Part shown: piece by piece, positions 26,186 through 52,663 of the stretch | Position numbering within the stretch: position 1 is the stretch's first letter | Layout: every line of letters starts with the position of its first letter | Assembly: GCA_964641245.1 (NCBI GenBank) | Contig: CAZXML010000001.1 | Location: 45,065-109,064 of the forward strand | Source of the DNA: an uncultured Gammaproteobacteria bacterium | GTDB lineage: Bacteria > Patescibacteriota > Patescibacteriia > Magasanikbacterales > GWA2-37-8 | Reading direction: 5' to 3' | DNA: 64,000 nucleotides | Program-made: the position numbers and the translations under genes | Notes under the pieces: generated by a model | The model's input: the letters and a program-made list of their open reading frames with translations, nothing else | What the model was told of the DNA's origin: nothing | Database searches by the model: none

Positions 26186-28940
26186 AAAAGCTGAACCATT
26201 AAATTTAATTTCCTGCGACCGTTGCCACGCAACCGGTTATATTGGGTTTGGCAAATGCCCGGAATGCAAGGGAATGGAAATGGGAATCAGCAAAAGGGGT
26301 AAATGGCTTTATTGGGATTATCCGCTTACCCGTTATAATTTATCTTTGCAAAGCGGACGGCGGATTTTAAACCGTATTCGTTTAATTACGGCGCTGGTTT
26401 TTTGGTTAACTTGTTGGATTTGGGTTGGAGTCACTGCCTACAAGGCAGATTTAGGCATTGTTTTTCGTGATCCCATTCATTGGCGTAATTTTATTTTAAC
26501 TTTGGGAAACAGCACCACCATTTTATTTTGGATGGGCGTAATCAGTTTATTTTATTTTTGGTACAGGATTATCCGGCAAAAAGAATTGGTGGGCGCGGTG
26601 GAAACTTTTAATTATGATGAAAAAAATAAAAAAGATTTAGTTGTTGGTTCCTGGGTTGACGCAAAAAAATTACCAAAGCGAAAAAAACATAATATCGCCG
26701 ACGCTTTTACCGAAGAGGCTTTATCCGCGCTGGCCAAGGCGTATCGTTTTGCTGATAAGAATGGCGCCAAAGAAGCAACTCCCGAACATTTATTTTATAC
26801 CCTGCTATCATTCAACAGAATCAGTAATATTTTTATCAGACTAGGCATTCCGGCTTCGTCACTACAAAAAGAATTGGTACCGTTGTTGCCAACCCACCCC
26901 AACCCCGCCCGAGCGGGGAATCGAGAAATGCCAACAGTGTCCAAAGATTTTCAACAAATTATTTTTCAGGCTTACGAATCGGCCTATAGCGCGCACCAGG
27001 ATTACGTTAGCGTCACCGAACTACTTATCATCGCCCTGCAGGAAACTCCGGCCATCGCCAAGGTTTTATTTAATTTTAATATCAGCGAACGTGATTTGGC
27101 AAATGTTATAGAGTGGGCCAGAATGCGCGAAAAACTTCACCGTCAATACCTCAAATTCAAACGGGCGGCCAGTCATCATTCCAAATACGGCATGGACAAA
27201 GCTATGACCGCGCTGGCCACTCCTTATTTAAATAGTTTCAGTTCCGACATTACCATGCTGGCGCATTACGGCCAGTTAAATCAATGCGTGGCCCGCTCCA
27301 AAGAAATAGAAGAAATTTATCAGGTTATAGACAGTGGTGAACACAATGTATTGCTGGTGGGGGAACATGGCGTCGGTAAAAAAACAATTGTGGAAGGCAT
27401 TGCGCAAAGCATGATAGAAGACGACGTGCCGGCCAGACTAAAAGACAAACGTTTGGTGCGTTTAAGTGTGTCGGCGCTGCTCGCCGGTACCAGTCCGGCC
27501 GGAGCGGTAGAAAGATTGCGGAATATAATGAACGAAATGTCGCGGGCGCGCAATGTAATTTTATTTATTCATAATTTACACGAACTGGTTGGCGTGGCGG
27601 CCGGCGAGAGCGGGAGTTTAGATATCGCGGACACCCTCACGGAATTTTTAGACAGTGATAAATTTTTAACCATCGCCACCACCACCACCGAAGATTTTTC
27701 GGAACATATTTCCAACTCTTCAATTAAAAGCGTGTTTACAAAAATAGATATTGCCGAGATGACCGAAGATCAGGCCATACAGGTTTTGGAATCGCGGGCG
27801 GGCGCGCTGGAGTATAAACAAAATGTATTTTTTTCTTACGATGCCGTGGCCAAAGCCGTGGAATACGCCGTTAAATTTATTCACGAATCATTTTTGCCAG
27901 GAAACGCTTTGGAACTTCTTACCGAATCCGCCACTTATACTCACAATAAAAAAGGCGGTAATTCCATCGTCACCAAAGAAGAAGTGGCGGCGGTAGTGAC
28001 CGAAAAAACCAAAATTCCTTTGTCCGCTATTTCCAGTGATGAATCCAGCAAACTCTTACTTTTAGAAGAAGAAATGCATGAACGCGTGATTGGCCAGGAT
28101 GAGGGCGTAACCGCCGTCGCCAATGCTTTGCGCCGGGCCCGCGCCGAAATGCGTTCGTCCAAACGGCCCATCGCCAACTTTTTATTTTTGGGCCCCACCG
28201 GCGTAGGCAAAACCGAACTTGCCAAAACCATCGCCCAAGTGTACTTTGGAGGTGAAAACAAAATGATTCGCCTAGACATGAGCGAGTATCAGGACAAGAG
28301 CAGTATATATAGGTTGATTGGCATGCCCGGAGCCAAAGGAACCGGCATACTTACCGAGGCTGTCCGCCGGAGTCCGTTTTCTCTTTTATTGCTGGATGAA
28401 ATAGAAAAAGCCGACCATGATGTGCTGAATTTATTTCTGCAGGTTATGGATGAAGGCCGGCTTAGCGACAGCGCCGGACACGTATTTGATTTTACCAATG
28501 TAATTTTAATCGCCACATCCAATGCCGGTACGGCCTATGTGCAAGAACAAAATAAAAAAGGCGTGGCGCACGAAGTTTTGCTGGACAGTCTTTTGCACGG
28601 AGAATTGAAAGAATATTTCCGCCCGGAATTTTTAAATCGTTTTGACGGAATTATTTTGTTCAACGCCTTAACCCAGCCGGATATTAAAAAAATCGCCGGT
28701 TTAATGTTTGGCGCTATTGCCAAAAGCATGGAACAAAAAGGCGTGCAGTTGACGGCCACAGACGATGCCCTGGAATTTTTGGCCACCGCCGGTTTTGATC
28801 CGGAATTTGGCGCTCGGCCGATGCGCCGGGTTTTGCAGGAAAAAGTAGAAAATAAACTGGCAGAATTATTTTTACAGGGAAAATTAAAAAGAGGCAGTAT
28901 GGTGACGGTCGGGGCGGGAGGAGAGATAAATGTAAATTAA
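26166..28940 (+). CDS. ClpC/ClpA-like double AAA+ unfoldase with an N-terminal zinc ribbon and two TM helices
   Basis: CDRCHATGYIGFGKCPECKG zinc ribbon, then TM segments, then Clp_N. D1 Walker A LLVGEHGVGKKT. D2 Walker A FLGPTGVGKTELAK. Sensor-2 GARPMRRV. Confidence 0.8.
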   Translation: MLRMQFKKAEPLNLISCDRCHATGYIGFGKCPECKGMEMGISKRGKWLYWDYPLTRYNLSLQSGRRILNRIRLITALVFWLTCWIWVGVTAYKADLGIVFRDPIHWRNFILTLGNSTTILFWMGVISLFYFWYRIIRQKELVGAVETFNYDEKNKKDLVVGSWVDAKKLPKRKKHNIADAFTEEALSALAKAYRFADKNGAKEATPEHLFYTLLSFNRISNIFIRLGIPASSLQKELVPLLPTHPNPARAGNREMPTVSKDFQQIIFQAYESAYSAHQDYVSVTELLIIALQETPAIAKVLFNFNISERDLANVIEWARMREKLHRQYLKFKRAASHHSKYGMDKAMTALATPYLNSFSSDITMLAHYGQLNQCVARSKEIEEIYQVIDSGEHNVLLVGEHGVGKKTIVEGIAQSMIEDDVPARLKDKRLVRLSVSALLAGTSPAGAVERLRNIMNEMSRARNVILFIHNLHELVGVAAGESGSLDIADTLTEFLDSDKFLTIATTTTEDFSEHISNSSIKSVFTKIDIAEMTEDQAIQVLESRAGALEYKQNVFFSYDAVAKAVEYAVKFIHESFLPGNALELLTESATYTHNKKGGNSIVTKEEVAAVVTEKTKIPLSAISSDESSKLLLLEEEMHERVIGQDEGVTAVANALRRARAEMRSSKRPIANFLFLGPTGVGKTELAKTIAQVYFGGENKMIRLDMSEYQDKSSIYRLIGMPGAKGTGILTEAVRRSPFSLLLLDEIEKADHDVLNLFLQVMDEGRLSDSAGHVFDFTNVILIATSNAGTAYVQEQNKKGVAHEVLLDSLLHGELKEYFRPEFLNRFDGIILFNALTQPDIKKIAGLMFGAIAKSMEQKGVQLTATDDALEFLATAGFDPEFGARPMRRVLQEKVENKLAELFLQGKLKRGSMVTVGAGGEINVN

Positions 28941-28945
28941 AATTT

Positions 28946-30537: not shown

Positions 30538-30661
30538 GCGCGGGGTTGACATATTTTGAGTTTTAATATATACTAAGCGCACTAACAAATTAGCAATAAA
30601 CAATTAGCAACTAACAATCGATTTGTTGTTTGTTAATTGTTATTTGTTAATTAATCAAATT

Positions 30662-31599: not shown

Positions 31600-31609
31600 A
31601 GCGTTGTTT

Positions 31610-31735
31610 TGTCATTGCGAGGAGTGAAGCGACGCGGTCCCGACCGCGGTCGAGGATCCTCGATTCACTATCGGGACAATCCCATTGTTGGCAGCACCAG
31701 TATTGTGGGATTGCTTCGCTTTGCTCGCAATGACA
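31610..31735. repeat. Family-B miniature palindromic element (TGTCATTGCGAGGAG...GGTCCCGACCGCGGTCGAGGATCCTCGATTCACTATCGGGACAATCCC...CTCGCAATGACA)
   Basis: A full copy in the recR-ybaB spacer. Related copies lie at 35429 (in frame within a CDS) and 36887 (inverted). Confidence 0.85.
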
Positions 31736-31736
31736 A

Positions 31737-32036
31737 TTACTTCTTAAGCATGCCGTCAAATCCGCCCATCTCCTGCATTTTGCCGGCCATTATTTTTTGC
31801 ATTTTTTTGGTGGCGTCGCCGTGCGCGTCTTTGATGGCGTTTTGCAGTTTTTCTTTTTTAGCCGGATTTAACATTTCGTCGTCTATGGCCACGCCGGTTA
31901 GCTGTAAATTTCCATCCATAGTTAAAGCCACGCCACTACTGTGGCTGGTGACGGACTCGCCCGCTAAAGCGCCCTGAAGTTTTTTACCCTGGTCGCGCAG
32001 GTCTTTGAATTGTTTTAATTTGCTAAACACTGACAT
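31737..32036 (-). CDS. ybaB: Nucleoid-associated protein YbaB/EbfC
   Basis: 99 aa. Motifs ...GGFDGMLKK and the DnaX-YbaB-RecR context. Confidence 0.85.
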   Translation of the reverse strand: MSVFSKLKQFKDLRDQGKKLQGALAGESVTSHSSGVALTMDGNLQLTGVAIDDEMLNPAKKEKLQNAIKDAHGDATKKMQKIMAGKMQEMGGFDGMLKK

Positions 32037-32123
32037 ATTGTATTAAGTATTATGTATTAAGTATTATGTATCCAGCGAACGATTTCGTGCTTAATACATA
32101 ATACTTGCTACTTAATACTAACA
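32037..32123. repeat. Family-F AT-rich palindrome (GTATTAAGTATTATGTAT...ATACATAATACTTGCTACTTAATAC)
   Basis: Long inverted repeat between ybaB and dnaB. It may be a bidirectional terminator or a mobile mini-element. Confidence 0.6.
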
Positions 32124-34167: not shown

Positions 34168-36471
34168 ATGATTTCTCGCCTTTTACTGAAAAATATGGTT
34201 CCGGCCGGGGCTTTGTCTGCCTTGGCTTATTTGGTTTTTGAAAAATGGCATAATTGGTTTTTGGGAACCCTGGTTTTATTTTTATATTTTTTGTTTGTTT
34301 CGGCCAAAACACAAGGGGTGTTGGTAAATTATTTCGGATTTACAAAATCGTTGCGGATTAGACTGTTGGCATTTTTTTTAAGTCTGGCCACATTGGGCTG
34401 GTTTTTGGGAATTTTTATATTTTTTGATTATTTTAATGGTTTGGCGGTATTTTTATCTTTTTTTGTAAACGCACTGGCGTGGTCACTCGCCACTCAATCG
34501 CTCTCTCCCCTTTTAGGGGAGAGACAGAGAGAGGGGTATACGGCGGGCATTGACGCACAAACAGATACCCCACCCCTCGCCCCTCCCCTAATAGGGGAGG
34601 GAGACCTTGAACCGCCCCACGCCAAAATCAGTGTCTTAATTTATCTGGGCCTGGTAATTTACGGATTTTATCTTTTGATGCAATCCAAAACCGGTGGCGT
34701 CATTTCTTCGCCGTGGCAAACTATTAATCAGAGTTATGTGTGGATTTTTTTGTTGGCTACTTTTTTGCTGGGTGCGTTAATATTTTTCTCAAAGATTTCT
34801 CTAAAAACTCTACTGTTCCTTCTTATAGTACATGCATTTTTACTTCACAGTTATTTACCGCTCACTCACGAATTATTTTACGGCGCGGACGGTTGGAGAC
34901 ATATTGCGAATGAACAGAGATTGGTGGAAGGAAAATCATTCTTAGAAGCAAAGCTTTCTACTGACACAAAAAATCAGAAGTCTGAAGTCCAAAGTCTGAA
35001 GTCCAAAGCCGGGCTTTTGTCTTATGCCAATTATTGGGGAACAAATGCGGCGCTGTCAAAAATACTGCAAATAGATTTAATTTCTTTGACCAAATGGTTT
35101 TTGCCGATTTCCTGGTCAATAATTTTTACTATTTTGTTATTAGAGATTGGATTGGCGTTGGGCTGGTCCGGCCGGAATTCATTGCTCTTTGCTTGGGCCG
35201 GAATGTGGCCGTTTGCTTTGCAGGTTGGCGGTTCTTTTTCTTTGCCCGTGAACTGGGGCTTCCTAATTTTTGTTTTGTTGTTTTTGCTGTTGATTAAAAG
35301 AATAAAAGAGCCAAATGACGAACAGAAAAATATTTTGTTGGCACTTGGACTTGGTTCAGCGCTGGGGTATTTATTATTTTTTGTTTTGTATTGGATGAGT
35401 TTTTTCTTAATGTCGCTTGTCTCACATTTGTCATTGCGAGGAGAGCAGCGACGCGGTCCCGACCGCGGTCGAGGATCCTCGATTCACTATCGGGACAATC
35501 CCATTGTCAGCACTACAGTATTTTGGGATTGCTTCGCTCTGCTCGCAATGACAGTGGTTGCGACATTGATTTTACCGGTTTTAGAGTTAGCTGGGAAGTT
35601 TAGTGTGTGGGATAGCGGGGTAAATATTTTGTTGCAAGCAAAACAATTTGCCGGCAATTTTTTATCTTTATATTTGGCCGCCGGCCCGCGTCCGCACGAT
35701 ATTATTGGCGGGAATATTTTGTTTAATCAAATGCCCGCTTCAATTTTTACATCAAATATTCTTACGCAATGGCTATGGTGGTTGCCAATGGTAATTTTGT
35801 CCGCCATCATTTTTATTATCCTGGGAATTAAGCGAAACAGAAAAGACCCAATTTATAAATTTATCCTGACTATTTTTTCCGTCCTGCTCACCAGTTATTT
35901 TTTATCCTTCTATTTATTATCCGGCGAGCGCTTGTTTTCCCGTCGTCTGGACGCAACACTGGCGCTCTTGTTTTTGATTTTGCTTTTCTACGGAGTAAAA
36001 GATATTCTTGATAAAAAGTGTATGGCTGGTTTAGCGGTAGTTATTTTATCCCTCGCCATCACCGCTTCATATACTTTGGGTCCGGATACTTATACTGTCA
36101 GCGCCAATCAATATACTGCCATCAATTATGTCTGGTCCCAAGAACAAAATAGTAATACGCATTGTGTTTTAGGCAACACTTATCCACTGCTCGCGCTGGA
36201 AGCCGTTTCCGGTAAAGAAATCATCGGCGGCGGTTTCCCCATAGATGCCAGTTTTGCCCAACCGGAACGGGAAGAACTATTTAAACAAATGAATATAGCC
36301 ATCAACGACAATTTACTTTCTCAAACAGCGTCTTTGACCAAAGCCGACCATTGTTGGTTTGTGGGGGAGAAGGCGAATTTTGCACAGCAAGGAATTTTGG
36401 GCGGTAATAGCACAAAAATATTTGGTGATACGGCGGTGGTGAGATATAATACTGCGGTCAATCTAAAATAA
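34168..36471 (+). CDS. Large polytopic membrane protein (767 aa) carrying two in-frame repeat-element insertions
   Basis: More than 12 predicted TM helices. A family-G insertion at 34497-34612 encodes SLSPLLGERQREGY...PPLIGEGDLEP. A family-B insertion at 35429-35553 encodes SLRGEQRRGPDRGRGSSIHYRDNPIV. Confidence 0.55.
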   Translation: MISRLLLKNMVPAGALSALAYLVFEKWHNWFLGTLVLFLYFLFVSAKTQGVLVNYFGFTKSLRIRLLAFFLSLATLGWFLGIFIFFDYFNGLAVFLSFFVNALAWSLATQSLSPLLGERQREGYTAGIDAQTDTPPLAPPLIGEGDLEPPHAKISVLIYLGLVIYGFYLLMQSKTGGVISSPWQTINQSYVWIFLLATFLLGALIFFSKISLKTLLFLLIVHAFLLHSYLPLTHELFYGADGWRHIANEQRLVEGKSFLEAKLSTDTKNQKSEVQSLKSKAGLLSYANYWGTNAALSKILQIDLISLTKWFLPISWSIIFTILLLEIGLALGWSGRNSLLFAWAGMWPFALQVGGSFSLPVNWGFLIFVLLFLLLIKRIKEPNDEQKNILLALGLGSALGYLLFFVLYWMSFFLMSLVSHLSLRGEQRRGPDRGRGSSIHYRDNPIVSTTVFWDCFALLAMTVVATLILPVLELAGKFSVWDSGVNILLQAKQFAGNFLSLYLAAGPRPHDIIGGNILFNQMPASIFTSNILTQWLWWLPMVILSAIIFIILGIKRNRKDPIYKFILTIFSVLLTSYFLSFYLLSGERLFSRRLDATLALLFLILLFYGVKDILDKKCMAGLAVVILSLAITASYTLGPDTYTVSANQYTAINYVWSQEQNSNTHCVLGNTYPLLALEAVSGKEIIGGGFPIDASFAQPEREELFKQMNIAINDNLLSQTASLTKADHCWFVGEKANFAQQGILGGNSTKIFGDTAVVRYNTAVNLK

Positions 36472-36477
36472 ATAATT

Positions 36478-36882
36478 ATGCAAGAATGCCTCTTCTGTAA
36501 AATAATCAATAAAGAAATTTCCAACTATACCGTCTACGAAGACGCCAATGTTTTGGCGTTTTTGGATATTCATCCTTGTTCCAAGGGGCATACGGTGGTG
36601 GTGCCGAAAAAACATTTTGCGGATTTAACGAAAATGTCGGCAGGTGATTGGCAAGGCATGAGCGGGGGATTGGCGGGGGTTTTTTCTAAAGTACAAAAAA
36701 TTTTAAATCCGGATGGAATAAATTTGGGAATAAACAACGGCAAAGCCGCTGGGCAGGCCGTGGGGCATGTTCATTGGCATCTTATTCCGCGGTGGAATGG
36801 GGATGGGGGAGGGAGTATGCATTCGATAATTCGTAAAGGGGAGGGCGTGGATGTGAAGGGAGTAGCAGAATTATTTATCTAA
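36478..36882 (+). CDS. HIT-family hydrolase
   Basis: Histidine triad HVHWHLIPR. 134 aa. Confidence 0.85.
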   Translation: MQECLFCKIINKEISNYTVYEDANVLAFLDIHPCSKGHTVVVPKKHFADLTKMSAGDWQGMSGGLAGVFSKVQKILNPDGINLGINNGKAAGQAVGHVHWHLIPRWNGDGGGSMHSIIRKGEGVDVKGVAELFI

Positions 36883-36886
36883 TAAT

Positions 36887-37012
36887 TGTCATTGCGAGCG
36901 AAGCGAAGCAATCCCAAAATACTGTAGTGCTGACAATGGGATTGTCCCGATAGTGAATCGAGGATCCTCGACCGCGGTCGGGACCGCGTCGCTACGGCTC
37001 CTCGCAATGACA
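36887..37012. repeat. Family-B element (inverted relative to 31610)
   Basis: TGTCATTGCGAGCGAAGCGAAGCAATCCC...CGAGGATCCTCGACCGCGGTCGGGACC...CTCGCAATGACA. Confidence 0.85.
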
Positions 37013-37660: not shown

Positions 37661-39658
37661 TTGTCGTTTAGCTCTCTCATTTCGATTATGGAACCAAGCG
37701 AAAAAGAACCGGACATTATAGGCAACCCGGATGTCAACTATTTTGCCACCACCAATTTTCGCAATAAAAACCGGAAATTTGGCATAAAGCTGGACGATCG
37801 CCGCCGGCATTTATATGTTGTGGGCAAAACGGGTATGGGCAAAACCACCATGTTAGAAAACATGGTTCTTAATGATATCTACGCGGGGCACGGCGTGGGA
37901 GTGGTAGATCCGCACGGCGATTTTGCCGAAAAAATTATAGATTATATTCCGGCTAATCGCATTAACGACGTGGTTTATTTTAATCCGTCCGATATTGATT
38001 TTCCAATCGGTTTTAATATTTTAGAAAGCATAGATCCGCGCTACCGCCATTTGGTGGCATCCGGACTTATGGGCGTTTTCAAAAAAATCTGGCCGGATGT
38101 GTGGAGCGCGCGCATGGAATACATTTTAAACAACACTCTTTTGGCCTTGCTGGAATTTCCCAACACCACCCTGCTAGGCATCAACCGACTGCTGGCCGAC
38201 AACGCTTACCGCAAACGCGTCATTAAAAATTTAAAAGATCCTGTTATCCGTTCATTCTGGGAAACGGAATTTGCCGGTTATAACGACCGCTATAAACAGG
38301 AAGCGGTCGCTCCGGTACAAAATAAAATCGGTCAATTTTTGTCGGCTTCGGTTATCCGCAACATTGTGGCGCAGACAAAATCGCGCATCAACATCCGCGA
38401 AATCATGGACACCAAGAAAATTTTTATCATGAACTTATCCAAAGGCAGAATCGGCGAAGATAATTCCCGGTTGCTGGGTGGTATGCTTATCACCAAAATT
38501 CAATTGGCGGCCATGGAAAGAGTAGACACTCCGGAAAAAGACCGCAAAGATTTTTTTCTTTATGTAGATGAATTTCAAAATTTTGCCACGGAAAGTTTTT
38601 CCAACATTTTATCCGAAGCGCGCAAATACCGGTTAGACTTAACCATGGCGCACCAATATATGGAGCAGTTGGATGAAACCGTGCTGGCCGCGGTAATTGG
38701 TAACGTGGGTACGCTGGTAACATTCCGGGTGGGTTCTACGGATGCGGAAATTCTGGCCAAAGAATTCGCGCCTACTTTTATAGAAACCGATTTGGTTAAT
38801 TTAACAAAATTTCAAATTTATTTAAAATTAATGATAGACGGCGTTGCTTCACAGCCTTTTTCCGCCAACACTTTATCGCCGATAAATATTTCCACCCATA
38901 GCACAGAAAAAGTTATTAAAGTTTCCCGCGAACGCTACGCCACCAGCCGGGAAAATATAGAAGACAAAATTATGCGTTGGACCGGTATGGAAGCCGGCGG
39001 AACGGGGGATACCGATGTAGACGAGGACGATGAAAATTACGGCGAGGATGAAGAGGGTATGCCGGTTTTGTTAGATAAGATGGTTGCTCCACCAATGGTG
39101 CCGGTTGCTCCAAAAGCTCCGACTCCGTCTGCTGTAAAAAAACTCCCGATTCTGACTCCGAGTCAGAATCGAGGATCCTCGATTTTGCCCGAACGCAAAA
39201 TCGGGACAACCCCTCCGCCGGTCAAAAAATCAGAACCCGCTCCGGTTAAATCAGACATAAAAGACAGTCAGCCGATTTCATTGGTGGATACAAGTCAAAA
39301 GGGGATAAGTTTGTCGCAAGCAGTACAAACTAACAAACAACCTGTTAAAGTAGAGAAAAAACACGAACATAAACCGGTGCAGGTGAGTCAGACGGTTCCT
39401 AAACAAGCGACAAATGCCAACCCACCCCTACCCAGACGCCTCCCGACCGCGGTCGAGGATCCTCGATTCTCGAGAATCGGGACAAGCGGGGAATTGCCAA
39501 AACCGCCAGCGCCACCGGCGACACCGGCGTCGGTAATTCCGCCTAAACCTTTACCAATAAATCAAACAGAGAAAAAGATTTTCCCGGATAAAATTGTCCA
39601 CATAGACGATGACACGGATAATGGCCTGCCTGCCGGCAGGCAGGTTGACAAAAATTAA
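37661..39658 (+). CDS. TraD/VirD4/HerA-like P-loop NTPase with a Pro-rich low-complexity C-terminus that contains repeat-element insertions
   Basis: Walker A VVGKTGMGKTT, Walker B FFLYVDEFQNF, and an AHQYMEQL motif. The C-terminal 250 aa are P/K-rich with embedded CGAGGATCCTCG and CCTGCCTGCCGGCAGGCAGG hairpins. Confidence 0.5.
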   Translation: MSFSSLISIMEPSEKEPDIIGNPDVNYFATTNFRNKNRKFGIKLDDRRRHLYVVGKTGMGKTTMLENMVLNDIYAGHGVGVVDPHGDFAEKIIDYIPANRINDVVYFNPSDIDFPIGFNILESIDPRYRHLVASGLMGVFKKIWPDVWSARMEYILNNTLLALLEFPNTTLLGINRLLADNAYRKRVIKNLKDPVIRSFWETEFAGYNDRYKQEAVAPVQNKIGQFLSASVIRNIVAQTKSRINIREIMDTKKIFIMNLSKGRIGEDNSRLLGGMLITKIQLAAMERVDTPEKDRKDFFLYVDEFQNFATESFSNILSEARKYRLDLTMAHQYMEQLDETVLAAVIGNVGTLVTFRVGSTDAEILAKEFAPTFIETDLVNLTKFQIYLKLMIDGVASQPFSANTLSPINISTHSTEKVIKVSRERYATSRENIEDKIMRWTGMEAGGTGDTDVDEDDENYGEDEEGMPVLLDKMVAPPMVPVAPKAPTPSAVKKLPILTPSQNRGSSILPERKIGTTPPPVKKSEPAPVKSDIKDSQPISLVDTSQKGISLSQAVQTNKQPVKVEKKHEHKPVQVSQTVPKQATNANPPLPRRLPTAVEDPRFSRIGTSGELPKPPAPPATPASVIPPKPLPINQTEKKIFPDKIVHIDDDTDNGLPAGRQVDKN

Positions 39659-40479: not shown

Positions 40480-40706
40480 TATTATAGTTCCTGCGTTGTT
40501 ATAGGCCGTTTCGATTTCATCGGACGGCTTTTTTTATTCCACTCATCTTGTTCCCTCCCGCTATTAGAGGAGGGATAATGGGTGGGGTTTTGTTTTAATT
40601 TGGCTTTTTCAATTACCAAACCCCCGCCTCTGCCCCCCCCCTTGTAGGGGGAGAAAGCCGGCCACAAGTGCTTGAAAAAATATCAAAAATAGAGTAGTTT
40701 ATCCCC

Positions 40707-41948
40707 ATGTCCAAAGCAAATAAAAAAATAAAGGTTTTGTGTACCATGAGTGGCGGGGTGGATTCCTCGGTTGCCTCGGCTCTTTTGGTTGCCCAAGGCT
40801 ATGATGTTACTGGCGCATTCATGGTCAATTACGACGAAATTGGCCCGCAAGGCGAATCCTGCTGGACTAGTGATTATCAAGACGCTCTGCGGGTGGCGGC
40901 CAAGCTGGGCATACCGCTGATGCGTTTGGATTTTGTAAAAGAATATAAAAAAACCGTTTTGGATTATATGTATGAGGAGTACCGGAAAGGCAGAACGCCG
41001 AACCCGGATGTTTTGTGTAATAAGTTTGTAAAGTTTGGCGTGTGGTTGGAAAAGGCGAAGGAGTTGGGGTTTGATAAGCTCGCAACAGGTCACTACGCGC
41101 GTCTCGCAAATTCCCCGCTTGGGCCTGCCTGCCGGCAGGCAGGCGGGGTAAGGGGTGGGTTGGCGTTAATGGAAGCGATGGATGCCAACAAAGACCAAAC
41201 CTATTTTTTACACCAATTAAATCAGGAACAATTAAAATTCGTTTTATTTCCTATCGGAGAATACACCAAGCCCCAAGTTAGAAAATTGGCCAAAAAATTC
41301 AATTTACCAAATGCCGACAAGGAAGAAAGCATGGGAATTTGTTTTGTGGGCGAAGTGCCAATGAAAGAATTTTTATTGAAAAAAATTAAGGCGAAAAAAG
41401 GGAAAATTATTTTAAGTACTGGTGAACAAATTGGCGTGCACGATGGTCTGCCTTTTTATACTATCGGACAGCGCCAAGGCCTTCGGACGTCTTGTCATTC
41501 TGAACGGAGTGAAGAATCTCTGTCTCAATCGTCAAACGGACAGAGATCCTTCGCTGGCACTCAGGATGACAATACGCGACCGCTTTACGTTCTTGCTAAA
41601 AATTTTGAGAAAAACGAATTGGTAGTCGGCTACGAAGACGATCCGTTATTATATAAAAAAACCGCCGAAGTGTCGGAGGTAAATTGGGTAAGCGGGCAAC
41701 CACCGAAATTTCCCTTAAATTGCGAAGTCCGTTTGCGTCATCGACAATCACTGCAAAAGTGCCTCGTTGATTCCCCGCTTGTCCCGATTCTCGAGAATCG
41801 TGGATCCCGACTCACTGTCGGGAGGCGGTCTACGGGTAGGGGTGGGTTGGCCATTAAATTTTCCAAACCTCAACGCGCGGTAACCCCCGGCCAATTTGCT
41901 GTCTTCTATAAAAAAGGTGAATGTCTTGGCGGTGGAATAATAAACTAA
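40707..41948 (+). CDS. mnmA: tRNA-specific 2-thiouridylase MnmA carrying three in-frame palindromic-element insertions
   Basis: PP-loop CTMSGGVDSSVA and the conserved MnmA core. It is 413 aa against about 360 typical. Extra segments are encoded at 41107-41165, 41493-41571 (family A) and 41770-41855. Confidence 0.85.
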   Translation: MSKANKKIKVLCTMSGGVDSSVASALLVAQGYDVTGAFMVNYDEIGPQGESCWTSDYQDALRVAAKLGIPLMRLDFVKEYKKTVLDYMYEEYRKGRTPNPDVLCNKFVKFGVWLEKAKELGFDKLATGHYARLANSPLGPACRQAGGVRGGLALMEAMDANKDQTYFLHQLNQEQLKFVLFPIGEYTKPQVRKLAKKFNLPNADKEESMGICFVGEVPMKEFLLKKIKAKKGKIILSTGEQIGVHDGLPFYTIGQRQGLRTSCHSERSEESLSQSSNGQRSFAGTQDDNTRPLYVLAKNFEKNELVVGYEDDPLLYKKTAEVSEVNWVSGQPPKFPLNCEVRLRHRQSLQKCLVDSPLVPILENRGSRLTVGRRSTGRGGLAIKFSKPQRAVTPGQFAVFYKKGECLGGGIIN

Positions 41949-41959
41949 AAAAGAAAAAG

Positions 41960-42290
41960 ACCTACCAGACCGCCCCTTTTTTGTTTTTTTATGGGGCTGG
42001 CTCTGATAAGTCTCATTCCGATTGTCCTGTGCTTTCGGATGCTCTCTTCCCGTAGGTGGGAGCATTGGGTTAACCAACCCCGATGGCGGTCGCTGACCAT
42101 GGTTCTTCGGCCTAGTGGCCTATCATGTTCTGCGCCATCGCGCTCGGCACGGTCTGTAGTACCCTCCTTCCTCGGTGTGGGTGTTGCTGGGGTTGATTTT
42201 TGAGCGGTGTGAGCAACCCAGGTCCCGCTGGGTTTCACGTTTTATATACTACTTTGCCTCTTGAGTTTTGTCAAGAGTAGTGATAAGATT
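41960..42290. ncRNA. ORF-free, GC-rich structured region; candidate non-coding RNA of unknown class
   Basis: About 300 nt with markedly higher GC than the flanks, containing many short complementary segments. Only short, low-complexity ORFs are present. Confidence 0.25.
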
Positions 42291-42297
42291 TATCAAT

Positions 42298-44229
42298 ATG
42301 ATTAACTCTCACGAATTACGTCAAAAATATCTGGAATTTTTCAAATCAAAAGGGCATGCCATTATTCCTTCGGCTTCTTTGATTCCGGAAAATGATCCCA
42401 CTGTGTTATTTACCACAGCCGGCATGCACCCGCTTGTTCCATATTTGCTTGGAGAAAAACATCCGGGTGGCAAACGGGTTACCAGCGCGCAAAAATGTGT
42501 GCGTACAGGCGACATAGACGAAGTGGGCGACAACCGTCATCTTACTTTTTTTGAAATGATGGGCAATTGGTCTTTTGGCGACTACTTCAAGAAGGAAGCG
42601 ATAGAATGGAGCTGGGAATTTTTAACATCTACAGTTTATTTAGGATTAGACCCGCGCCAATTGGCCGTGTCTGCTTTTGAAGGTGAAGAGGGGATTCCGC
42701 GCGACAACGAAGCCGCGGAAATTTGGCAATCTTTGGGAATGAGTGAAGAAAGAATTGCGTTTTTACCGAGAAAAAATAATTGGTGGGGTCCGGCGGGTCA
42801 AACCGGTCCGTGCGGTCCGGATACGGAAATGTTTTTTTGGCGCCCCAGTCATTCGACAGGGCAAGCGGCGGGTGAATTTCCTCCGGCCGGCAGTAATCCC
42901 AAAACAGACGAAGACAATTGGTTGGAAATTTGGAACGATGTTTTCATGCAGTACAATAAAAATACCGCCGGCGCCTACGAACCGTTAAAACAAACCAATG
43001 TAGATACGGGTATGGGTTTGGAACGGACGCTGGTGGTTCTAAATGGTTATGCGGATGTTTTTCAGATAGACACGCTTTGGCCGGTTATCCAAAAAATTCA
43101 AAACATTTCCGGGCGCGAGTATATAGAAAGCGCGGACGTCACCCGTTCCATGAGAATAATTGCCGACCATTTGCGTACGGCCACTATGATTATGGCCGAC
43201 GATACCAAAATCGCGCCCAGTAATGTGGATCAGGGTTATATTGTCCGTCGGTTAATCCGCCGCGCCGTGCGTCACGGCCGGCTGTTAGGCATGCACGCCA
43301 ATTTTTGCAGTATTATTTCTCAAGAAGTAATAAATATTTTGGCCGATGTTTATCCGGAGCTGGAAAAAAATAAAGAATTTGTGTTAACCGAAATGGCGCG
43401 GGAAGAAAGCGGTTTTAAAAATACCATTGAACAAGGTTTAAAAGAATTTGAAAAATTATTGCGCGGATTTCAAATGGCATTCGAAAAAATGCCGATTTTG
43501 CCTCGGCAAAATCGAGCATCCTCGATTTCAACGCCAGTTGAAATCGGGACAGGCCAAATGGTAAAACAAATTTCCGGCAAACAAGCATTCAAGTTATTTG
43601 AGACTTTTGGTTTTCCTTTGGAAATAACCCAGGAGCTGGCCAACGAAAATAATTTAATGGTAGATGTGAACGGTTTTGAGGAAGCGTTTAAAGCGCATCA
43701 GGATTTATCGCGCGTTGGCGCCGAACAAAAATTCAAAGGCGGGCTGGCCGATACCGGCGAGATGTCCACCAAATATCATACTGCCACCCATTTGCTCCAT
43801 GCCGTACTGCGCAAAGTGCTCGGGACGCATGTAGAACAGCGGGGCAGTAACATTACCGCCGAACGTTTGCGTTTTGATTTTTCTCATCCGGAAAAAATGT
43901 CGGAGGAACAAAAAAAACAAGTGGAAGATTTAATAAATTACGCCATCGGCCATGACTACCATGTATCTTTCGCCGAAATGTCTGTAGATGAAGCTAAAGC
44001 CAAGGACGCGATGGGTTTATTTGGCGATAAATACGGCGCCCAAGTTAAAGTTTATTCCATCGGCGATCCCAATTCCGCTCCGGACGCTCACGCCAATTCC
44101 CTAACATTCAGCCGCGAAATTTGCGGCGGTCCTCATGTAGAACACACCGGCACTCTCGGTAAATTTAAAATTATAAAAGAAGAAGCCGTGAGTTCGGGAA
44201 TTCGCCGTATCAAAGCTATTTTGGAATAA
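42298..44229 (+). CDS. alaS: Alanyl-tRNA synthetase, compact form lacking the C-Ala domain, with one in-frame element insertion
   Basis: Catalytic motifs FTTAGMHP, QKCVRTGDID and FFEMMGNWSFGDYFK. Editing domain HTATHLLH...CGGPHV. Insertion at ~43495-43560. Confidence 0.85.
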   Translation: MINSHELRQKYLEFFKSKGHAIIPSASLIPENDPTVLFTTAGMHPLVPYLLGEKHPGGKRVTSAQKCVRTGDIDEVGDNRHLTFFEMMGNWSFGDYFKKEAIEWSWEFLTSTVYLGLDPRQLAVSAFEGEEGIPRDNEAAEIWQSLGMSEERIAFLPRKNNWWGPAGQTGPCGPDTEMFFWRPSHSTGQAAGEFPPAGSNPKTDEDNWLEIWNDVFMQYNKNTAGAYEPLKQTNVDTGMGLERTLVVLNGYADVFQIDTLWPVIQKIQNISGREYIESADVTRSMRIIADHLRTATMIMADDTKIAPSNVDQGYIVRRLIRRAVRHGRLLGMHANFCSIISQEVINILADVYPELEKNKEFVLTEMAREESGFKNTIEQGLKEFEKLLRGFQMAFEKMPILPRQNRASSISTPVEIGTGQMVKQISGKQAFKLFETFGFPLEITQELANENNLMVDVNGFEEAFKAHQDLSRVGAEQKFKGGLADTGEMSTKYHTATHLLHAVLRKVLGTHVEQRGSNITAERLRFDFSHPEKMSEEQKKQVEDLINYAIGHDYHVSFAEMSVDEAKAKDAMGLFGDKYGAQVKVYSIGDPNSAPDAHANSLTFSREICGGPHVEHTGTLGKFKIIKEEAVSSGIRRIKAILE

Positions 44230-48204: not shown

Positions 48205-48594
48205 ATGAATATGACAACAACAGCGATTAAAAGAAAAAAAATATCTTTAGACGCCTCCGGCCAGATTGTCGGCCGTTTAGCTACCAAAATTGCTATGATT
48301 TTGATGGGCAAAAACAAACCGGATTTCCAGCGCCACATAGACACCGGAGATAAAGTGGAAGTTTCTAACATTAAAGAAATCCGTTTTACCGGAAAAAAGG
48401 CTATCAGCAAAGAATATAGACACCACAGTTTACACCCGGGTGGTTTAAAAATTAAAACAGCCCAGACTTTGATAAAAGAAGATCCGGAAGAAATTCTTAA
48501 GCACGCTGTTTCCAGAATGTTGCCAAAAAACAAAATGCGCACCGCCAGATTATTGCGTATTAAATTTATAAATCAAATAACAAAAAACAATTAG
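48205..48594 (+). CDS. rplM: 50S ribosomal protein L13
   Basis: LDASGQIVGRLATKIAMILMGKNKPDF. Confidence 0.85.
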   Translation: MNMTTTAIKRKKISLDASGQIVGRLATKIAMILMGKNKPDFQRHIDTGDKVEVSNIKEIRFTGKKAISKEYRHHSLHPGGLKIKTAQTLIKEDPEEILKHAVSRMLPKNKMRTARLLRIKFINQITKNN

Positions 48595-48653
48595 CAATAA
48601 ACAAACGGTTTGTTGCTTGTTAATTGCTAGTTGCTAATTGTTAATTAAATACT

Positions 48654-49112: not shown

Positions 49113-49205
49113 TTAGTTGACGGGCAATTGTCATTCCCGCTTGCGGCGGGAATGACAGTAAAATCGTTTGTTTTTTTGGTGTCACTAGGGTAAAATATAC
49201 CCATT

Positions 49206-50651
49206 ATGTCCTACACCGTCGCCCAAAACACCTCTTTTCTCACCATCGCCTCTGTTCTGCAAAAGGTAATTTCTTTTTTTTACTTTATTTTTGTCGCCCG
49301 AATAATTCAGGTAGAAAATACCGGCGTGTATTTTTTTGCCATTGCTTTTACAACTATTTTTATTGTGGTGGCCGATTTTGGTATGGGCTCGGTTTTAACC
49401 AGAGAAGCGTCCCGTTTTCCGGACAGATCCGAAAGTTATTTCAACACCGTTTTTTGGACAAAAGTAATTTTTGGCGCCGGCACTTATTTATTGGTGGTTT
49501 TGTTCGCCAATATTTTAAAATATCCGGAAACCACCAAACTGCTTATCTATGTTTCCGGTATTACCATGTTCCTGGACAATCTTACCGGCGCGTTCAACAG
49601 TATTTTTCGGGCCAAGAAAAATCTAATCTATGAATCTCTGGGTATTATCATCTCCCAATTCACTACCTTGCTTATCGGCACTTTTGCGTTGCTTAATCAC
49701 TGGCCGCTTGTCTGGCTTATCCTGGCCTACACTATTCCCAGTTTTTTAAACTTAATTTACATTAGAATTTTTTTAAAAAAAGTTTACAACATCGGCGTTC
49801 ATTTTGTCTGGCAAAGCCAGGTGTTTAAAATTTTTCTGGCCACAGCCCTGCCGTTTGCTTTGGCGGGTATTATCGGCCGGTTGTTTTCTTTCAGCGATTC
49901 TCTGCTTATGTCTAAACTGCTTTCCGCTAAAGAGCTGGGGTGGTGGAGCGTGTCGTACAAAATCACTTTTGCTTTCCAGTTTATTCCCGTGGCCTTATCC
50001 GCCAGTGTTTACCCCGTTTTCAGCAGTTTATTTTTAACCAACAAAATGGCCATTGGTCCGTTGTTCGAAAAATCATGGCGTTATTTATTTGCCATTATTT
50101 TCCCCATCGCCTTTGGGCTCATTGCCATTGCCGATCCGGTGGTACGCAAAGTTTTTGGCCAGGAATTTTCGCCCTCCATCACACCCCTGCGATTTTTGCT
50201 GATTAGTTTAATTTTTGGATTTTTGTCATTTATAACCGGCGCTTTGCTCAATGCCATCAACAAACAAAAAACACAAACCGCACTAATGGCTGTAGTTTTA
50301 GTTATAAATGTTATTTTAAATATAATTTTATTGCCGAAGCTGGGAATTACCGGCGCAGCCATTTCGGCGCTGGCCAGCAATGCCGTTCTTTGTCTGGCCG
50401 GCCTCTATTTTGCCCGCCGCCAAGTGGCCATAGATTCCACAAAACTTCTAAAATACATCAACCAAACCCTCTGGCCATCCCTAGCCATGGCCGCCGTCGT
50501 CTACTACCTTTCCAATAAAATTCATTACCTCCCCACAATTTTAATCGGTGGCGCAATTTATCTGATTTTGATTTGTTTTACCGGCGTTGTTACCAGAAAC
50601 CATGTTTCGATAATTATTGATAAATTAAAGCCGAAACGTCGAATTGCGTAG
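49206..50651 (+). CDS. Polysaccharide flippase (Wzx/MOP superfamily)
   Basis: 481 aa with ~14 TM helices. The loop pattern is flippase-like. Confidence 0.6.
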   Translation: MSYTVAQNTSFLTIASVLQKVISFFYFIFVARIIQVENTGVYFFAIAFTTIFIVVADFGMGSVLTREASRFPDRSESYFNTVFWTKVIFGAGTYLLVVLFANILKYPETTKLLIYVSGITMFLDNLTGAFNSIFRAKKNLIYESLGIIISQFTTLLIGTFALLNHWPLVWLILAYTIPSFLNLIYIRIFLKKVYNIGVHFVWQSQVFKIFLATALPFALAGIIGRLFSFSDSLLMSKLLSAKELGWWSVSYKITFAFQFIPVALSASVYPVFSSLFLTNKMAIGPLFEKSWRYLFAIIFPIAFGLIAIADPVVRKVFGQEFSPSITPLRFLLISLIFGFLSFITGALLNAINKQKTQTALMAVVLVINVILNIILLPKLGITGAAISALASNAVLCLAGLYFARRQVAIDSTKLLKYINQTLWPSLAMAAVVYYLSNKIHYLPTILIGGAIYLILICFTGVVTRNHVSIIIDKLKPKRRIA

Positions 50652-50663
50652 CGTCGTCAATTT

Positions 50664-50744
50664 TGTCATTCTGAGCAAAGCGAAGAATCTCTGTCCGTAC
50701 AATCACAACTAGACAGAGATCCTTCACTACGTTCAGGATGACAA
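50664..50744. repeat. Family-A element
   Basis: TGTCATTCTGAGCAAAGCGAAGAATCTCTGTCCG...GACAGAGATCCTTCACTACGTTCAGGATGACA. Confidence 0.85.
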
Positions 50745-50783
50745 ATCCGTATAATCCGTTAAAAATCCGTGTAATCTATAATT

Positions 50784-51908
50784 ATGAAAACCCTCATCAT
50801 CACCCTGGAATACCCGCCGCAAATCGGGGGAGTGGCATCCTACACTTACAACCTCGCCAAAAACATGTCTGGCGACGATGTTGTCGTCTACGCCCCAAAA
50901 ATGGAAGGGGACTTGGCTTTTGATAAAAAAAATAAATGGAAGGTTATGCGCGCCAATCCGTTTTATTGGTTTGCCTGGCCGAAGTGGGTAAGAATGCTGG
51001 TACACGTTTGGGACTTGGCAAAAAAAGAAAAAATCCAAATGATTTACGCTCATCATGCCTTGCCGGTGGGCTACGTGGCCTATTTATTAAAAAAATTCCA
51101 AAAAATTCCTTACGTTGTTTTTTTCCACGGCACGGATTTGGATTTAGGGATAAAAAATAAAAAAAATAAATTAAAAAAGATTTGCGCGGAGGCGGAAAAA
51201 ATAGTGGTCAACAGCGAATATCTAAAAAATAAATTTCAATCCGCTTTTGAAGATTTAAAAAAAGAAATCACCGTGGTCTATCCCTGCCCGGACGAAATTT
51301 TTTCTCGGCGCGTTCCGGAACCGGAATTAAAAAAATTAAAATCACAGCTGGCGTTGGAGGGTAAAAAAGTTATCATTACCGTCGCCCGCATCGCCGAAGG
51401 CAAAGGCTACCCGCACATCATCCGCCTGCTCCCAAAAATTCTGGAAAAAGTTCCAAACCTAGTCTGGCTTATTGTCGGAGACGGCCCTAAAAAAGACGAA
51501 GTCATAATATCCATCCAAAAAAACTTCCTGCAAAACGTCACCCGTTTCATCGGCAAAATACCCTACACCGAACTCCCCAAATACTACCAATTGGCCGATT
51601 TATTGGTGCTTTTAACGCACCCGGACGAATCTACAGCCGAAGAAGCCTGGGGCACCGCTTTCGTTGAAGCCGCCGCCTCCGGACTCCCCGTAGTGGCCGG
51701 TAGAGCCGGCGGTGTAGAAGAAGCCGTCCAAAACATGGTTTCCGGCCTGGTGGTAGACGTCTACCAAGACCAAAGCATCATCTCCGCCATCACCGAATTA
51801 TTACGCAACCCGGATTATTCCAAACAAATGGGCCAAGCCGGCAAAGAACGTGTTATACGTGAGTTTAATTGGTCAGAACAATTGAAGAAATTAGAAATTA
51901 GAAATTAG
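50784..51908 (+). CDS. Glycosyltransferase family 4 (GT-B, group 1)
   Basis: C-terminal EAWGTAFVEAAASGLPVVAGRAGGVEE (the E-x7-E region). Confidence 0.75.
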   Translation: MKTLIITLEYPPQIGGVASYTYNLAKNMSGDDVVVYAPKMEGDLAFDKKNKWKVMRANPFYWFAWPKWVRMLVHVWDLAKKEKIQMIYAHHALPVGYVAYLLKKFQKIPYVVFFHGTDLDLGIKNKKNKLKKICAEAEKIVVNSEYLKNKFQSAFEDLKKEITVVYPCPDEIFSRRVPEPELKKLKSQLALEGKKVIITVARIAEGKGYPHIIRLLPKILEKVPNLVWLIVGDGPKKDEVIISIQKNFLQNVTRFIGKIPYTELPKYYQLADLLVLLTHPDESTAEEAWGTAFVEAAASGLPVVAGRAGGVEEAVQNMVSGLVVDVYQDQSIISAITELLRNPDYSKQMGQAGKERVIREFNWSEQLKKLEIRN

Positions 51909-51913
51909 AAATT

Positions 51914-52663
51914 ATGGAATTGATAAGTGTCATCATCCCCGTCTACAACCACGCCCACACCCTAAAAAGATCCCTAGATTCTATTTTTAACCAAACCTAC
52001 CGCCCTTTAGAGGTAATCGTAGTCAACGACGGCAGCACCGACAATTTCTCCGAAGTCATGTCAAGCTGTCATCCTGAACTTGTTTCAGGATCTATCACTG
52101 TAAAAACAATCTCCCAACCCAACTCCGGCGCCCCCACCGCCCGCAACAACGGCTTCGCCCTCTCCAAAGGCGACTACGTCATCTTCTGGGACGCCGACAC
52201 CCTCGCCAACCCCCAAATGCTCCAAAAAATGTTCTCTTATTTACAAAAACACCCCGACGCTTCTTATTCCTACTCCCAATTCAAATTCGGCTGGAAAACC
52301 ATAAAAAGCCACCCCTTCGACGCTCAAAAACTAAAGCAATTAAATTACATCGACGTCACCTCCCTCATCCGCCGCCAATCTCTCAATTGTCATCCTGAAC
52401 GCAGTGAAGGATCCCTCTCTGTCTGCCCCTTCGACCCATCCCTAAAACGTTTCCAAGACTGGGACCTCTGGCTCACTCTCTTATCCCGTGGAAAAACCGG
52501 CGTCTTCATCCCCGAAGTCCTCTACGAAAAAGTAGTCGGCTCCCGCGAAGGCATCAGCACCTGGCTCCCCAGTTTTATGTATCTTCTACCCTGGAAAACC
52601 AAAGAAGTAAAAAAATACGAATCCGCCCGTTCAATCATTATAAAAAAACACAATCTATTGTAG
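51914..52663 (+). CDS. Glycosyltransferase family 2, with two in-frame partial palindromic-element insertions
   Basis: ISVIIPVYNHAHTLKRSL...LEVIVVNDGSTD, and a D.D region. The insertions encode SSCHPELVSGSITV (52063-52100) and NCHPERSEGSLSVCP (~52378-52425). Confidence 0.7.
   Translation: MELISVIIPVYNHAHTLKRSLDSIFNQTYRPLEVIVVNDGSTDNFSEVMSSCHPELVSGSITVKTISQPNSGAPTARNNGFALSKGDYVIFWDADTLANPQMLQKMFSYLQKHPDASYSYSQFKFGWKTIKSHPFDAQKLKQLNYIDVTSLIRRQSLNCHPERSEGSLSVCPFDPSLKRFQDWDLWLTLLSRGKTGVFIPEVLYEKVVGSREGISTWLPSFMYLLPWKTKEVKKYESARSIIIKKHNLL

Follow-up and report, generated by a model that had tools for sequence, protein, structure and literature searches.

A bacterium that its sequence places in the candidate phyla radiation (CPR) carries short, hairpin-forming DNA repeats not only between its genes but also in frame within intact housekeeping and accessory genes. 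We examined 64,000 nt of contig CAZXML010000001.1 (assembly GCA_964641245.1; positions 45,065–109,064, forward strand; hereafter the window), which is gene-dense, with nearly all genes on the plus strand and ~90% of its length in open reading frames (ORFs). The nearest AlaRS genes were from metagenome-assembled genomes at 70–73% identity, one of them labelled Candidatus Magasanikbacteria, a label also borne by the nearest family-2 glycosyltransferase (GT2) proteins. There were 36 element loci in the 64 kb, 13 of which lie inside seven homology-supported genes, including three in MnmA and one in GlyRS that the first-pass annotation of this DNA had not listed. That annotation had proposed repeat elements inserted in frame across such genes, and its core reading was borne out. 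We consider it probable that the elements are selfish hairpin repeats, and that the copies within genes are those that selection has left: in frame, stop-free and located in loops.

Every segment singled out earlier has further copies in the window, as found by repeat finding and self-BLAST, and the dispersed copies are 85–100% identical and located both in genes and intergenically. The TGTCAT arm pattern that defines the main family had 15 matches compared to 0 expected from shuffled sequence, and a looser search found ~45 TGTCAT-type arms. In this family (A), an arm consists of TGTCAT, a short hairpin and ATC, with stem variants including ATTCT/AGAAT, ATCCT/AGGAT, ATGCT/AGCAT, ATTGC/GCAAT and ATTCCC/GGGAAT. 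An arm may stand alone, follow another in tandem or be paired, in inverted orientation and across a spacer, with a second arm (termini TTGTCAT...ATGACAA), and these paired-arm elements (70–150 nt; six intergenic copies and one in MnmA) fold at −39 to −45 kcal/mol with z-scores of about −7. Family C strings hairpins together around AATCGAGGATCCTCGATT between CCCGA...TCGGGACA boundaries, family P follows GCCAACCCACCCC[AT]ACCCCGC-loop-GCGGGGAAT, family G comprises paired TCTCCCC...GGGGAGA hairpins, and family B is an A-type element carrying C. Nesting in loops was recurrent: P carries C in both the tail of a TraD-like gene and MnmA, P carries a 22-nt palindrome in MnmA, and the element at 21289 carries another A-type element. 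Full elements overall fold at −39 to −60 kcal/mol (z −6 to −7.6). Apart from the one third of loci that are intragenic, the architecture is that of repetitive extragenic palindromic sequences (REPs), REPINs and bacterial interspersed mosaic elements (PMC3116915). Copies outside supported genes include:

1320–1405: full family-A element, intergenic, the reference copy (−44.8 kcal/mol, z −7.6)
15856–15928, 19003–19088, 20416–20494, 21289–21436 (with the nested element) and 50663–50744: sister full family-A copies, intergenic
31608–31739, plus strand: third family-B copy, at the start of an unsupported 122-aa ORF with no Pfam match
36886–37012, minus strand: family-B copy, intergenic between HIT and NUDIX genes, inverted relative to 35428–35553 (107 nt, 98% complementary)
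56283–56328, minus strand: family-P copy, intergenic, the reference for the copy in the ClpC-like gene

No Rfam family corresponded to the elements at gathering thresholds over the whole window, and permissive E-values on 18950–21500 returned only meaningless similarities to miRNA hairpins; a hammerhead-like reading of CUGA...GAA was dropped, as it matched no Rfam family. When plasmids and cultured phages were searched with the elements by BLASTN, nothing beyond marginal 28–35 nt matches in Phocaeicola and Novosphingobium records was returned, and we found no paper describing the element peptides, the element DNA strings or miniature transposable elements with inverted repeats (MITEs) in CPR/Patescibacteria. 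Separately, a 211-nt duplication (52815–53025 and 55282–55492, 91% identical) opens with a TGTCAT arm in each copy, and a small Cys-rich ORF (MPTKTILNRLQKTCACCGKAIHVIVYSPAASGILDSWSRE...) that has a C-like hairpin in frame begins in the first of them.

The earlier gene calls were supported by Pfam, and the genes that contain elements are:

17532–18992: GlyRS
26166–28940: ClpC-like AAA+ protein (Pfam)
34168–36471: polytopic membrane protein, 767 aa (Pfam)
37661–39658: TrwB/TraD-like ATPase with a long tail (Pfam)
40707–41948: MnmA (Pfam)
42268–44229: AlaRS, short (Pfam)
51914–52663: GT2 (Pfam)

Within these genes the elements, all given on the plus strand, are:

17942–17985, plus strand: GC-rich double hairpin in GlyRS, LPPPAGGVPPHGG, with a copy at 22425–22461
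26885–26930, plus strand: family-P copy in the ClpC-like gene, GCCAACCCACCCCAACCCCGC-CCGA-GCGGGGAAT, encoding LPTHPNPARAGNREM in a loop between two Clp_N-like helices
34497–34612, plus strand: full family-G element in the membrane protein, two inverted arms, each a TCTCCCC...GGGGAGA hairpin
35428–35553, plus strand: family-B composite in the membrane protein, 126 nt or 42 codons (LSLRGEQRRGPDRGRGSSIHYRDNPIVSTTVFWDCFALLAMT)
39145–39205, plus strand: family-C-like triple hairpin in the TraD/TrwB-like tail, CCCGATT...AATCGAGGATCCTCGATT...AATCGGG, related to the AlaRS element
39416–39494, plus strand: family-P copy with nested family-C module in the TraD-like tail, 86% identical, inverted, to 41770–41849
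39623–39644, plus strand: 22-nt palindrome GGCCTGCCTGCCGGCAGGCAGG, 8 codons ahead of the TraD-like stop, 22/22 identical to 41122–41143
41108–41163, plus strand: family-P copy (reverse) with nested 22-nt palindrome in MnmA, NSPLGPACRQAGGVRGGLA
41492–41572, plus strand: full family-A element in MnmA, two inverted TGTCAT arms and a spacer, 81 nt, SCHSERSEESLSQSSNGQRSFAGTQDDN
41770–41851, plus strand: family-P copy (reverse) with nested family-C module in MnmA, DSPLVPILENRGSRLTVGRRSTGRGGLA, at a 20–24 codon gap in all orthologs
43489–43548, plus strand: family-C-like insertion in AlaRS, exactly 60 nt, MPILPRQNRASSISTPVEIG, between GAA AAA and ACA GGC
52055–52097, plus strand: solo family-A arm in GT2 loop 1, TGTCATCCTGAACTTGTTTCAGGATC, residues 52–60, CHPELVSGS
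52387–52425, plus strand: solo family-A arm in GT2 loop 2, 39 nt, residues 159–168, CHPERSEGSL, 95% identical to the arm at 21400–21437

At all nine sites claimed in the first-pass annotation, translation reproduced the quoted peptides, the host ORF was uninterrupted and ORF homology was present on both sides. No stops or frameshifts coincided with the insertions, and the segments were absent from homologs of other phyla and from solved structures. A repeat copy was present at all nine sites, but net insertion could not be shown for the ClpC-like gene and the three sites in the TraD-like tail: realignment to orthologs yielded gaps at AlaRS, both GT2 sites and the membrane family-B copy and could not resolve the ClpC-like loop and the TraD-like tail. 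Orthologs were drawn from a comparison locus (L001) that is syntenic with the window for the membrane protein, TraD-like, MnmA and AlaRS genes, and from loci L002, L004 and L005. Judged from alignments with orthologs or PDB structures, the AlaRS, GT2 (both), membrane family-B, MnmA (all three) and GlyRS copies are clean insertions.

The AlaRS insert is the cleanest, corresponding to a 20-codon gap in 8/8 orthologs with the flank ACN GGC; it is also missing from PDB homologs (33 residues in this region vs. 7 in 1riq), and this pair of empty and filled sites showed no target-site duplication. The same protein has a second lineage-specific extra segment, seven residues (PSHSTGQ; residues 193–199, 42823–42915), with no detectable repeat copy elsewhere in the window. 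In MnmA, the first copy falls in a 12–16 codon gap in L001, L002, L005 and PDB 2hma, and the full family-A element (90% identical to 20432–20494; −38.9 kcal/mol, z −7.1) is missing from the same three loci and from PDB homologs. The GT2 segments at 52067–52100 and 52387–52425 match many TGTCAT arms; site 1 amounts to ~27 nt, or about nine additional residues relative to the shortest orthologs, and the 13 codons of site 2 are absent in 12/41 orthologs. GlyRS has ~13 extra residues compared to PDB 8u2q. The sister copy of its hairpin (22425–22461) is joined to a duplicate of the 5′ half of tRNA-Thr (22390–22424), just upstream of an intact tRNA-Thr(TGT) at 22493.

The membrane family-B copy has TGTCATTGCGAG...CTCGCAATGACA termini around a nested CCCGA...GGATCC...TCGGG module, folds at −59.9 kcal/mol, is 96% identical to the copy at 36887 and 93% to that at 31608, and corresponds to a 27-aa gap in L001, with which the protein shares just 34% identity. 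The family-G element in the same gene has arm copies at 55516–55555, 40552–40588 and 53358–53383 and folds at −56 kcal/mol (z −5.8), and the L001 ortholog is ~15 aa shorter at that site. In the ClpC-like gene, the family-P copy matches 56283–56328 in inverted orientation (85% over 46 nt, E 4e-10), while the loop that it encodes is variable and merely 2–6 aa longer than the loops of relatives; the alignment points to an in-frame repeat copy in a host region too variable to show net insertion. The TraD-like tail (hairpin at 39145–39205: −27 kcal/mol, z −5.2) cannot be aligned with orthologs and is no longer than the L001 tail; the C-terminus is extended relative to L001. Its three sites are likewise best described as in-frame repeat copies.

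Whether an arm can persist in a gene appears to depend on reading frame. Arms in genes read as CHPE... or VIL/VIP..., while the third frame (TTG TCA TCC TGA) holds a TGA stop and was never seen in genes. An inserted length that is a multiple of three, a check suggested earlier, is a trivial consequence of an intact gene; since the intergenic copies are 68–148 nt long and mostly not multiples of three, the property reflects survivorship and not the element itself. Placement within proteins was similarly restricted. In an AlphaFold model of GT2 (mean predicted local distance difference test score, pLDDT, 80), both inserts are modelled as coil between confident strands or helices, with pLDDT of about 62 for insert 1 and below 50 at residues 162–168 of insert 2, such that both are predicted to be located in loops; the AlaRS and MnmA inserts coincide with gaps in PDB alignments. 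Although ~90% of the window is ORF, only 13/36 loci are in genes, making in-gene copies roughly 16-fold rarer than coding density predicts, as is expected under purifying selection.

These observations are consistent with the view that the genome was invaded by several families of DNA repeats that are short, self-complementary and non-coding, with composites such as family B arising by nesting of one module in the loop of another. Copies would land genome-wide, with most survivors just past stop codons, and survival in a gene would require a frame-keeping length, a stop-free frame through the hairpin and a site in a surface loop or disordered tail that tolerates additions. Ordinary transcription and translation of the inserted DNA would then add loops of 9–42 residues to the protein. 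We infer that the inserts are translated rather than removed and that the host tolerates them as near-neutral passengers; translation would produce host/insert junction peptides such as AFEKMPILPR...VEIGTGQM in AlaRS, SLNCHPERSEGSLSVCPFD in GT2 and GLRTSCHSERSEE in MnmA, as well as NCHPERSEGSLSVCPFD.

The very stable hairpins within essential genes could instead suggest that the segments are absent from the mature protein through RNA-level removal or ribosomal bypass, as with mitochondrial 'byp' elements or T4 gene 60. We regard this as highly improbable, given that all in-gene copies are in frame and stop-free, which would be needless if they were skipped, that no ribozyme or intron family was matched in Rfam, and that inteins and group I/II introns are far larger than the elements. 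Introns, inteins and translational bypass were rejected on the same grounds of frame, absence of stops and size. DNA uptake sequences were also rejected, as these are 10-mers driven by point mutation, whereas the elements are insertions of 30–126 nt relative to orthologs.

The intergenic copies bear on a different question, namely whether the hairpins serve the host as REP-like stabilisers of mRNA 3′ ends, terminators or protein-binding sites, with in-gene copies being collateral or regulatory, for example as translation pause sites. All six intergenic full family-A copies lie 0–25 nt past a stop codon in the same orientation, the hairpins are very stable, and the arm, with its covarying stems, is conserved over contigs of 38–70% GC. 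However, there is no T-run 3′ of the hairpins, the T-run being upstream, the closest relatives lack the elements altogether, and copies within genes face either way and are read in more than one frame. Solo in-gene arms have also lost hairpin stability, as at GT2 site 2 (z +0.1). We therefore consider a host function unlikely, and selfish repeats filtered by selection remain our preferred explanation.

Comparison among relatives points to a lineage-specific expansion and to loops that have been used repeatedly. Against 28 arms and 10 family-C cores in the window, none were present in ~60 kb syntenic to it in the closest relatives (L001, L002, L003 and L005), indicating that the elements expanded in this lineage. 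Across 42 GT2 orthologs, the two loops hold varied element-encoded peptides, including CHPELVSGS, VILNEMKDPS (the same arm in another frame), VIPSEAVADEGS, ARSEATKQS, SPxYQGGxGVVA and VIPSEA..., as well as NCHPERSEGSL and DSPLGRGRGG, the latter being family P read in reverse; loop 2 is empty in 12. In a neighbour-joining tree with the loops masked, insertion states were scattered and sister sequences differed in presence, variant and frame (the window vs. P0002, P0036 vs. P0062, and P0034 vs. P0054). At the DNA level, loop 1 arms start 5, 9 and 14 nt past the same conserved codon in three orthologs. The MnmA gene of another Patescibacteria genome (L004) has its own TGTCAT...ATGACAA element (CHPERTQTAVVGESRDPF...GRNDN; ~8990–9150) in the same loop as the family-A element of the window. 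The simplest reading is repeated gain, loss or overwriting at a few permissive loops. In loop 2, P0062 has SALN-PT and its sister P0036 SALN-CHPERSEGSLSGNC; the former may be a deletion footprint retaining the left junction of the element.

A live alternative for the common loops is one ancient insertion that was subsequently converted, as part of a broader account in which elements spread and were replaced mainly through homologous recombination, gene conversion and nested insertion with no dedicated transposase. This would accommodate the nested and mosaic structure of the elements (P bearing C or the palindrome, A bearing an A-type element, and B as A-type plus C) and the (S/E)(A/S)(L/I)(N/T) left junction found in all filled GT2 site-2 alleles, which is encoded by an element-like TTTAA/TCAA extension; exchange within the 107-nt identical core of the inverted family-B copies is also how a second assembly differs from the window. 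By contrast, the staggered starts of the GT2 site-1 arms speak against conversion, and conversion alone leaves the first arrival at the AlaRS and GlyRS sites unexplained. We judge this account to be unlikely as the main process. The TTTAA/TCAA left flank was often seen intergenically, and was also present at GT2 site 2, but is missing at MnmA and GT2 site 1, so there is no firm target rule, and intergenic flanks are AT-rich (TTAA/TAA) and thus ambiguous for target-site duplication.

Contigs from two other assemblies, one from JGI and one from Logan, reproduce the TraD-like, MnmA, AlaRS and GT2 alleles at 99.98–100% identity. The JGI contig (L204), from an independent assembly of the same population, equals the window from 36887 on, while its opening 1,554 nt match positions 35423–36974 of the window in reverse complement, indicating that the 1.33-kb segment between the inverted family-B copies (107-nt core, 98% identical) is flipped there. 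This segment comprises the C-terminal part of the membrane protein and the HIT gene, and the flipped orientation would be predicted to split the membrane gene. The two orientations may be genuine recombination isomers, or the assembler may have switched paths within the repeat. Whether the membrane gene runs on through the family-B copy thus hinges on the assembly path through a 126-nt repeat that is resolved otherwise in another assembly; we accepted the orientation in the window because it is colinear with L001 and gives an intact gene. Pairs of in-gene and intergenic copies, such as these inverted copies 1.33 kb apart, might serve as switches through which recombination disrupts a gene and makes it whole again.

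Chimeric joins at repeats could in principle mimic in-gene copies, and the opposite orientation of this segment, together with contigs of two other assemblies that terminate inside elements, would be in line with an artefact of assembly or binning. Nevertheless, the recurrence of the same alleles in both the JGI and Logan assemblies, the colinearity of the genes with orthologs on both flanks of each insert, and the presence of related elements at the same GT2 loops in orthologs from many other assemblies make an artefact scarcely credible, and we rejected it on the basis of the recurring alleles.

To place the arm in a wider context, we searched IMG/VR with the exact pattern TGTCATYCTGARCNNAGYGAAGRATC, which matched at least 120 contigs, with GC contents of 38–70% among the matches listed. 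Within these (L084–L203), 33/120 contigs have common structural proteins, indicating one phage group, and several ORFs of the listed arm-bearing contigs contain element peptides such as LLRCARNDK and RSFASLRMT. About half of the arms in the listed loci fall within open frames of 150 codons or more, though high GC content makes spurious long frames likely. Stem pairing was strongly conserved across 151 distinct arms from the matches listed: positions 7 and 23, at which the pattern allowed all four combinations, paired as T-A in 90 and C-G in 61 with no other combination, and the second stem pair was G-C in 128, A-T in 19 and other in 4. The free loop position 14 was G in 91% of these arms, giving a C-GNA-G triloop, and about 90% of listed arms had a GCGNAGC or ACGNAGT core flanked by tandem G-A/A-G mismatches. 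Stem covariation and the loop G together define the arm as TGTC-ATYCT-GA-RC-GNA-GY-GA-AGRAT-C, comprising a 5-bp stem, the tandem mismatches and a GCGNAGC mini-hairpin. As DNA, the GCGNAGC mini-hairpin is extraordinarily stable in single-stranded form (PMC13037366). It is the same motif as the arm core of the IMG/VR copies but is a structural motif and not a mobile element family; in the elements described here, the hairpin may form in vivo.

The mini-hairpin core and the lack of target-site duplication at AlaRS make mobilisation through recognition of single-stranded DNA structure the most attractive mechanism. By analogy with REPIN/RAYT and IS200/IS605, the elements might move as single-stranded DNA hairpins, a suggestion to which we give less than even weight. 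Equally tentative is a broader proposal that TGTCAT arms form an undescribed, widely dispersed superfamily of REP-like single-stranded DNA mini-hairpins with the above consensus, which would circulate among bacteria of differing GC content and their phages, be moved by a structure-recognising enzyme, write peptides into proteins (CHPERSEGS and VILSEAKD or, in the reverse frame, ...LRCAQDDK, ...LRFARNDN and ...FASLRMT) and recolonise the same permissive loops of orthologs.

Several results weigh against selfish, mobile repeats as the explanation. The Pfam scan of 19 window ORFs contained no transposase or RAYT-like gene, and ORF clusters from the 120 listed arm-bearing viral loci comprised phage structural families only, with no mobilising enzyme; no autonomous parent insertion sequence (IS) with the same termini was seen among the 19 ORFs either. 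Mobility is deduced from the distribution of copies, and the identical insertions in two independent assemblies provide no direct evidence of ongoing movement. Scans of metagenome contigs with the membrane family-B and GT2 site-1 junctions found no empty allele, but the filled allele was also absent from that collection, although the GT2 pattern does match the window itself, indicating that the species is not represented there. The left arms in the window have a GCAAAGC loop and not the GNA triloop. The shared orientation and post-stop position of the six intergenic family-A copies also fit stabilisation of RNA 3′ ends or termination, net insertion was not demonstrable in the ClpC-like protein and the TraD-like tail, and translation of the inserts is predicted from the open frames.

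The first-pass annotation had further anticipated that recurring element peptides would appear as spurious conserved motifs in protein databases. This held for the arm peptides: GT2 orthologs repeatedly carry CHPERSEGSL, CHPELVSGS, VILNEMKDPS, VIPSEA... and DSPLGRGRGG, and peptides related to these were present in ORFs of phages. The family-B peptide had no match, the database search with its 42-mer returning no candidates, but the word index is poorly suited to short peptides, and absence should not be read from this result. Querying with two arm peptides joined into a 43-aa chimera yielded a single candidate but no match, and the GT2 orthologs carrying NCHPERSEGSL were missed. Motifs such as CHPERSEGSL, CHPELVSGS and DSPLGRGRGG look conserved yet represent no homologous protein sequence, and they can distort the clustering and alignment of CPR proteins and the search for domains in them; assemblies, too, break at the elements. 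If our preferred explanation is correct, the window would add, from a lineage with a reduced genome, a second and independent example of essential genes (aminoacyl-tRNA synthetases, MnmA and ClpC) that tolerate selfish palindromes, and the GT2 family would supply a natural series in which elements are gained, lost and replaced at two fixed loops. Were the wider proposal also true, an unrecognised means of mobilisation would be suggested by the broad distribution of the arm and by its mini-hairpin core.

Other features of the window were recorded alongside the elements. A 3,003-aa ORF (1434–10445) probably encodes a giant surface repeat protein: its sequence repeats with a period of 2,016 nt (three copies, ~71% identical), and sub-repeats of 330 nt are nested within. 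An Rfam RF00028 (group I intron) match at 23270–23474, barely over the gathering score, interrupts a tRNA-like gene at 23250–23540 that ARAGORN did not call, with a 202-aa ORF (22633–23241) immediately 5′ of it. A DUF3800-V RNA motif (Rfam RF02964, 53.6 bits; 55031–55128, minus strand) adjoins a DUF3800 protein gene (54363–55013) in an accessory region that also carries AntA-like, RadC, Phd/YefM antitoxin and DNA methylase genes. Two kinds of AT-rich intergenic repeats are unrelated to the hairpin families, namely GTATTAAGTATTATG-type repeats at 14661–14745 and 32040–32071 and AACAATTAGCAA...TTGTTAATTG inverted repeats at 30574–30652 and 48575–48653.

Among known systems, MITEs with intragenic copies include ERIC, BOX, Correia, QMITE1 and Anabaena MITEs (reviewed in PMC10969869). 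The elements resemble these as small non-autonomous repeats with terminal inverted repeats (TTGTCAT...ATGACAA here) and occasional in-frame ORF fusions, but differ in the absence of target-site duplication at AlaRS, in having no known parent IS and in the much higher frequency of in-frame copies. Likeness to the REP/REPIN/RAYT system is closer in construction (PMC3116915, PMC3337134, PMC2817692). REPINs are REP doublets that form hairpins (PMC3116915), and the elements share with them imperfect palindromic arms of 25–40 nt in many copies, inverted doublets with a spacer that form long hairpins, remnant-like solo arms, clusters and tandem arrays, and a conserved 5′ foot (TGTC here) beside a structurally conserved stem. 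REPs are nearly all extragenic, however, with 14/1,067 16-mers overlapping genes in P. fluorescens SBW25 (PMC3116915). About a third of the loci here (13/36) are intragenic and so depart from extragenic placement, and the 19 window ORFs scanned included no RAYT. The foot also separates the elements from enterobacterial REPs, in which it is GTAG.

Rickettsia palindromic elements (RPEs; Ogata et al. 2000, as summarised in PMC10969869) are known in frame in Rickettsia genes, with nearly half of R. conorii RPEs being intragenic, and the same selection-filter explanation is given for them. Differences from RPEs are the lack of an evident sequence relationship, with no Rfam match and no comparison made to RPE consensus sequences, the other host phylum, the mostly shorter length (22–126 nt vs. 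about 100–150 nt), the modular and nested construction, the insertion of solo 26–40 nt arms and the fact that expression of inserts is predicted here. Similarities are palindromic repeats in frame in unrelated housekeeping genes with intact ORFs, a large intragenic fraction (13/36 loci here) and peptide segments added at permissive sites compatible with the fold (the GT2 model and the PDB gaps in AlaRS and MnmA). The elements appear to fall under the full definition of neither system; they work like the RPEs of Rickettsia and are built like REPs and REPINs.

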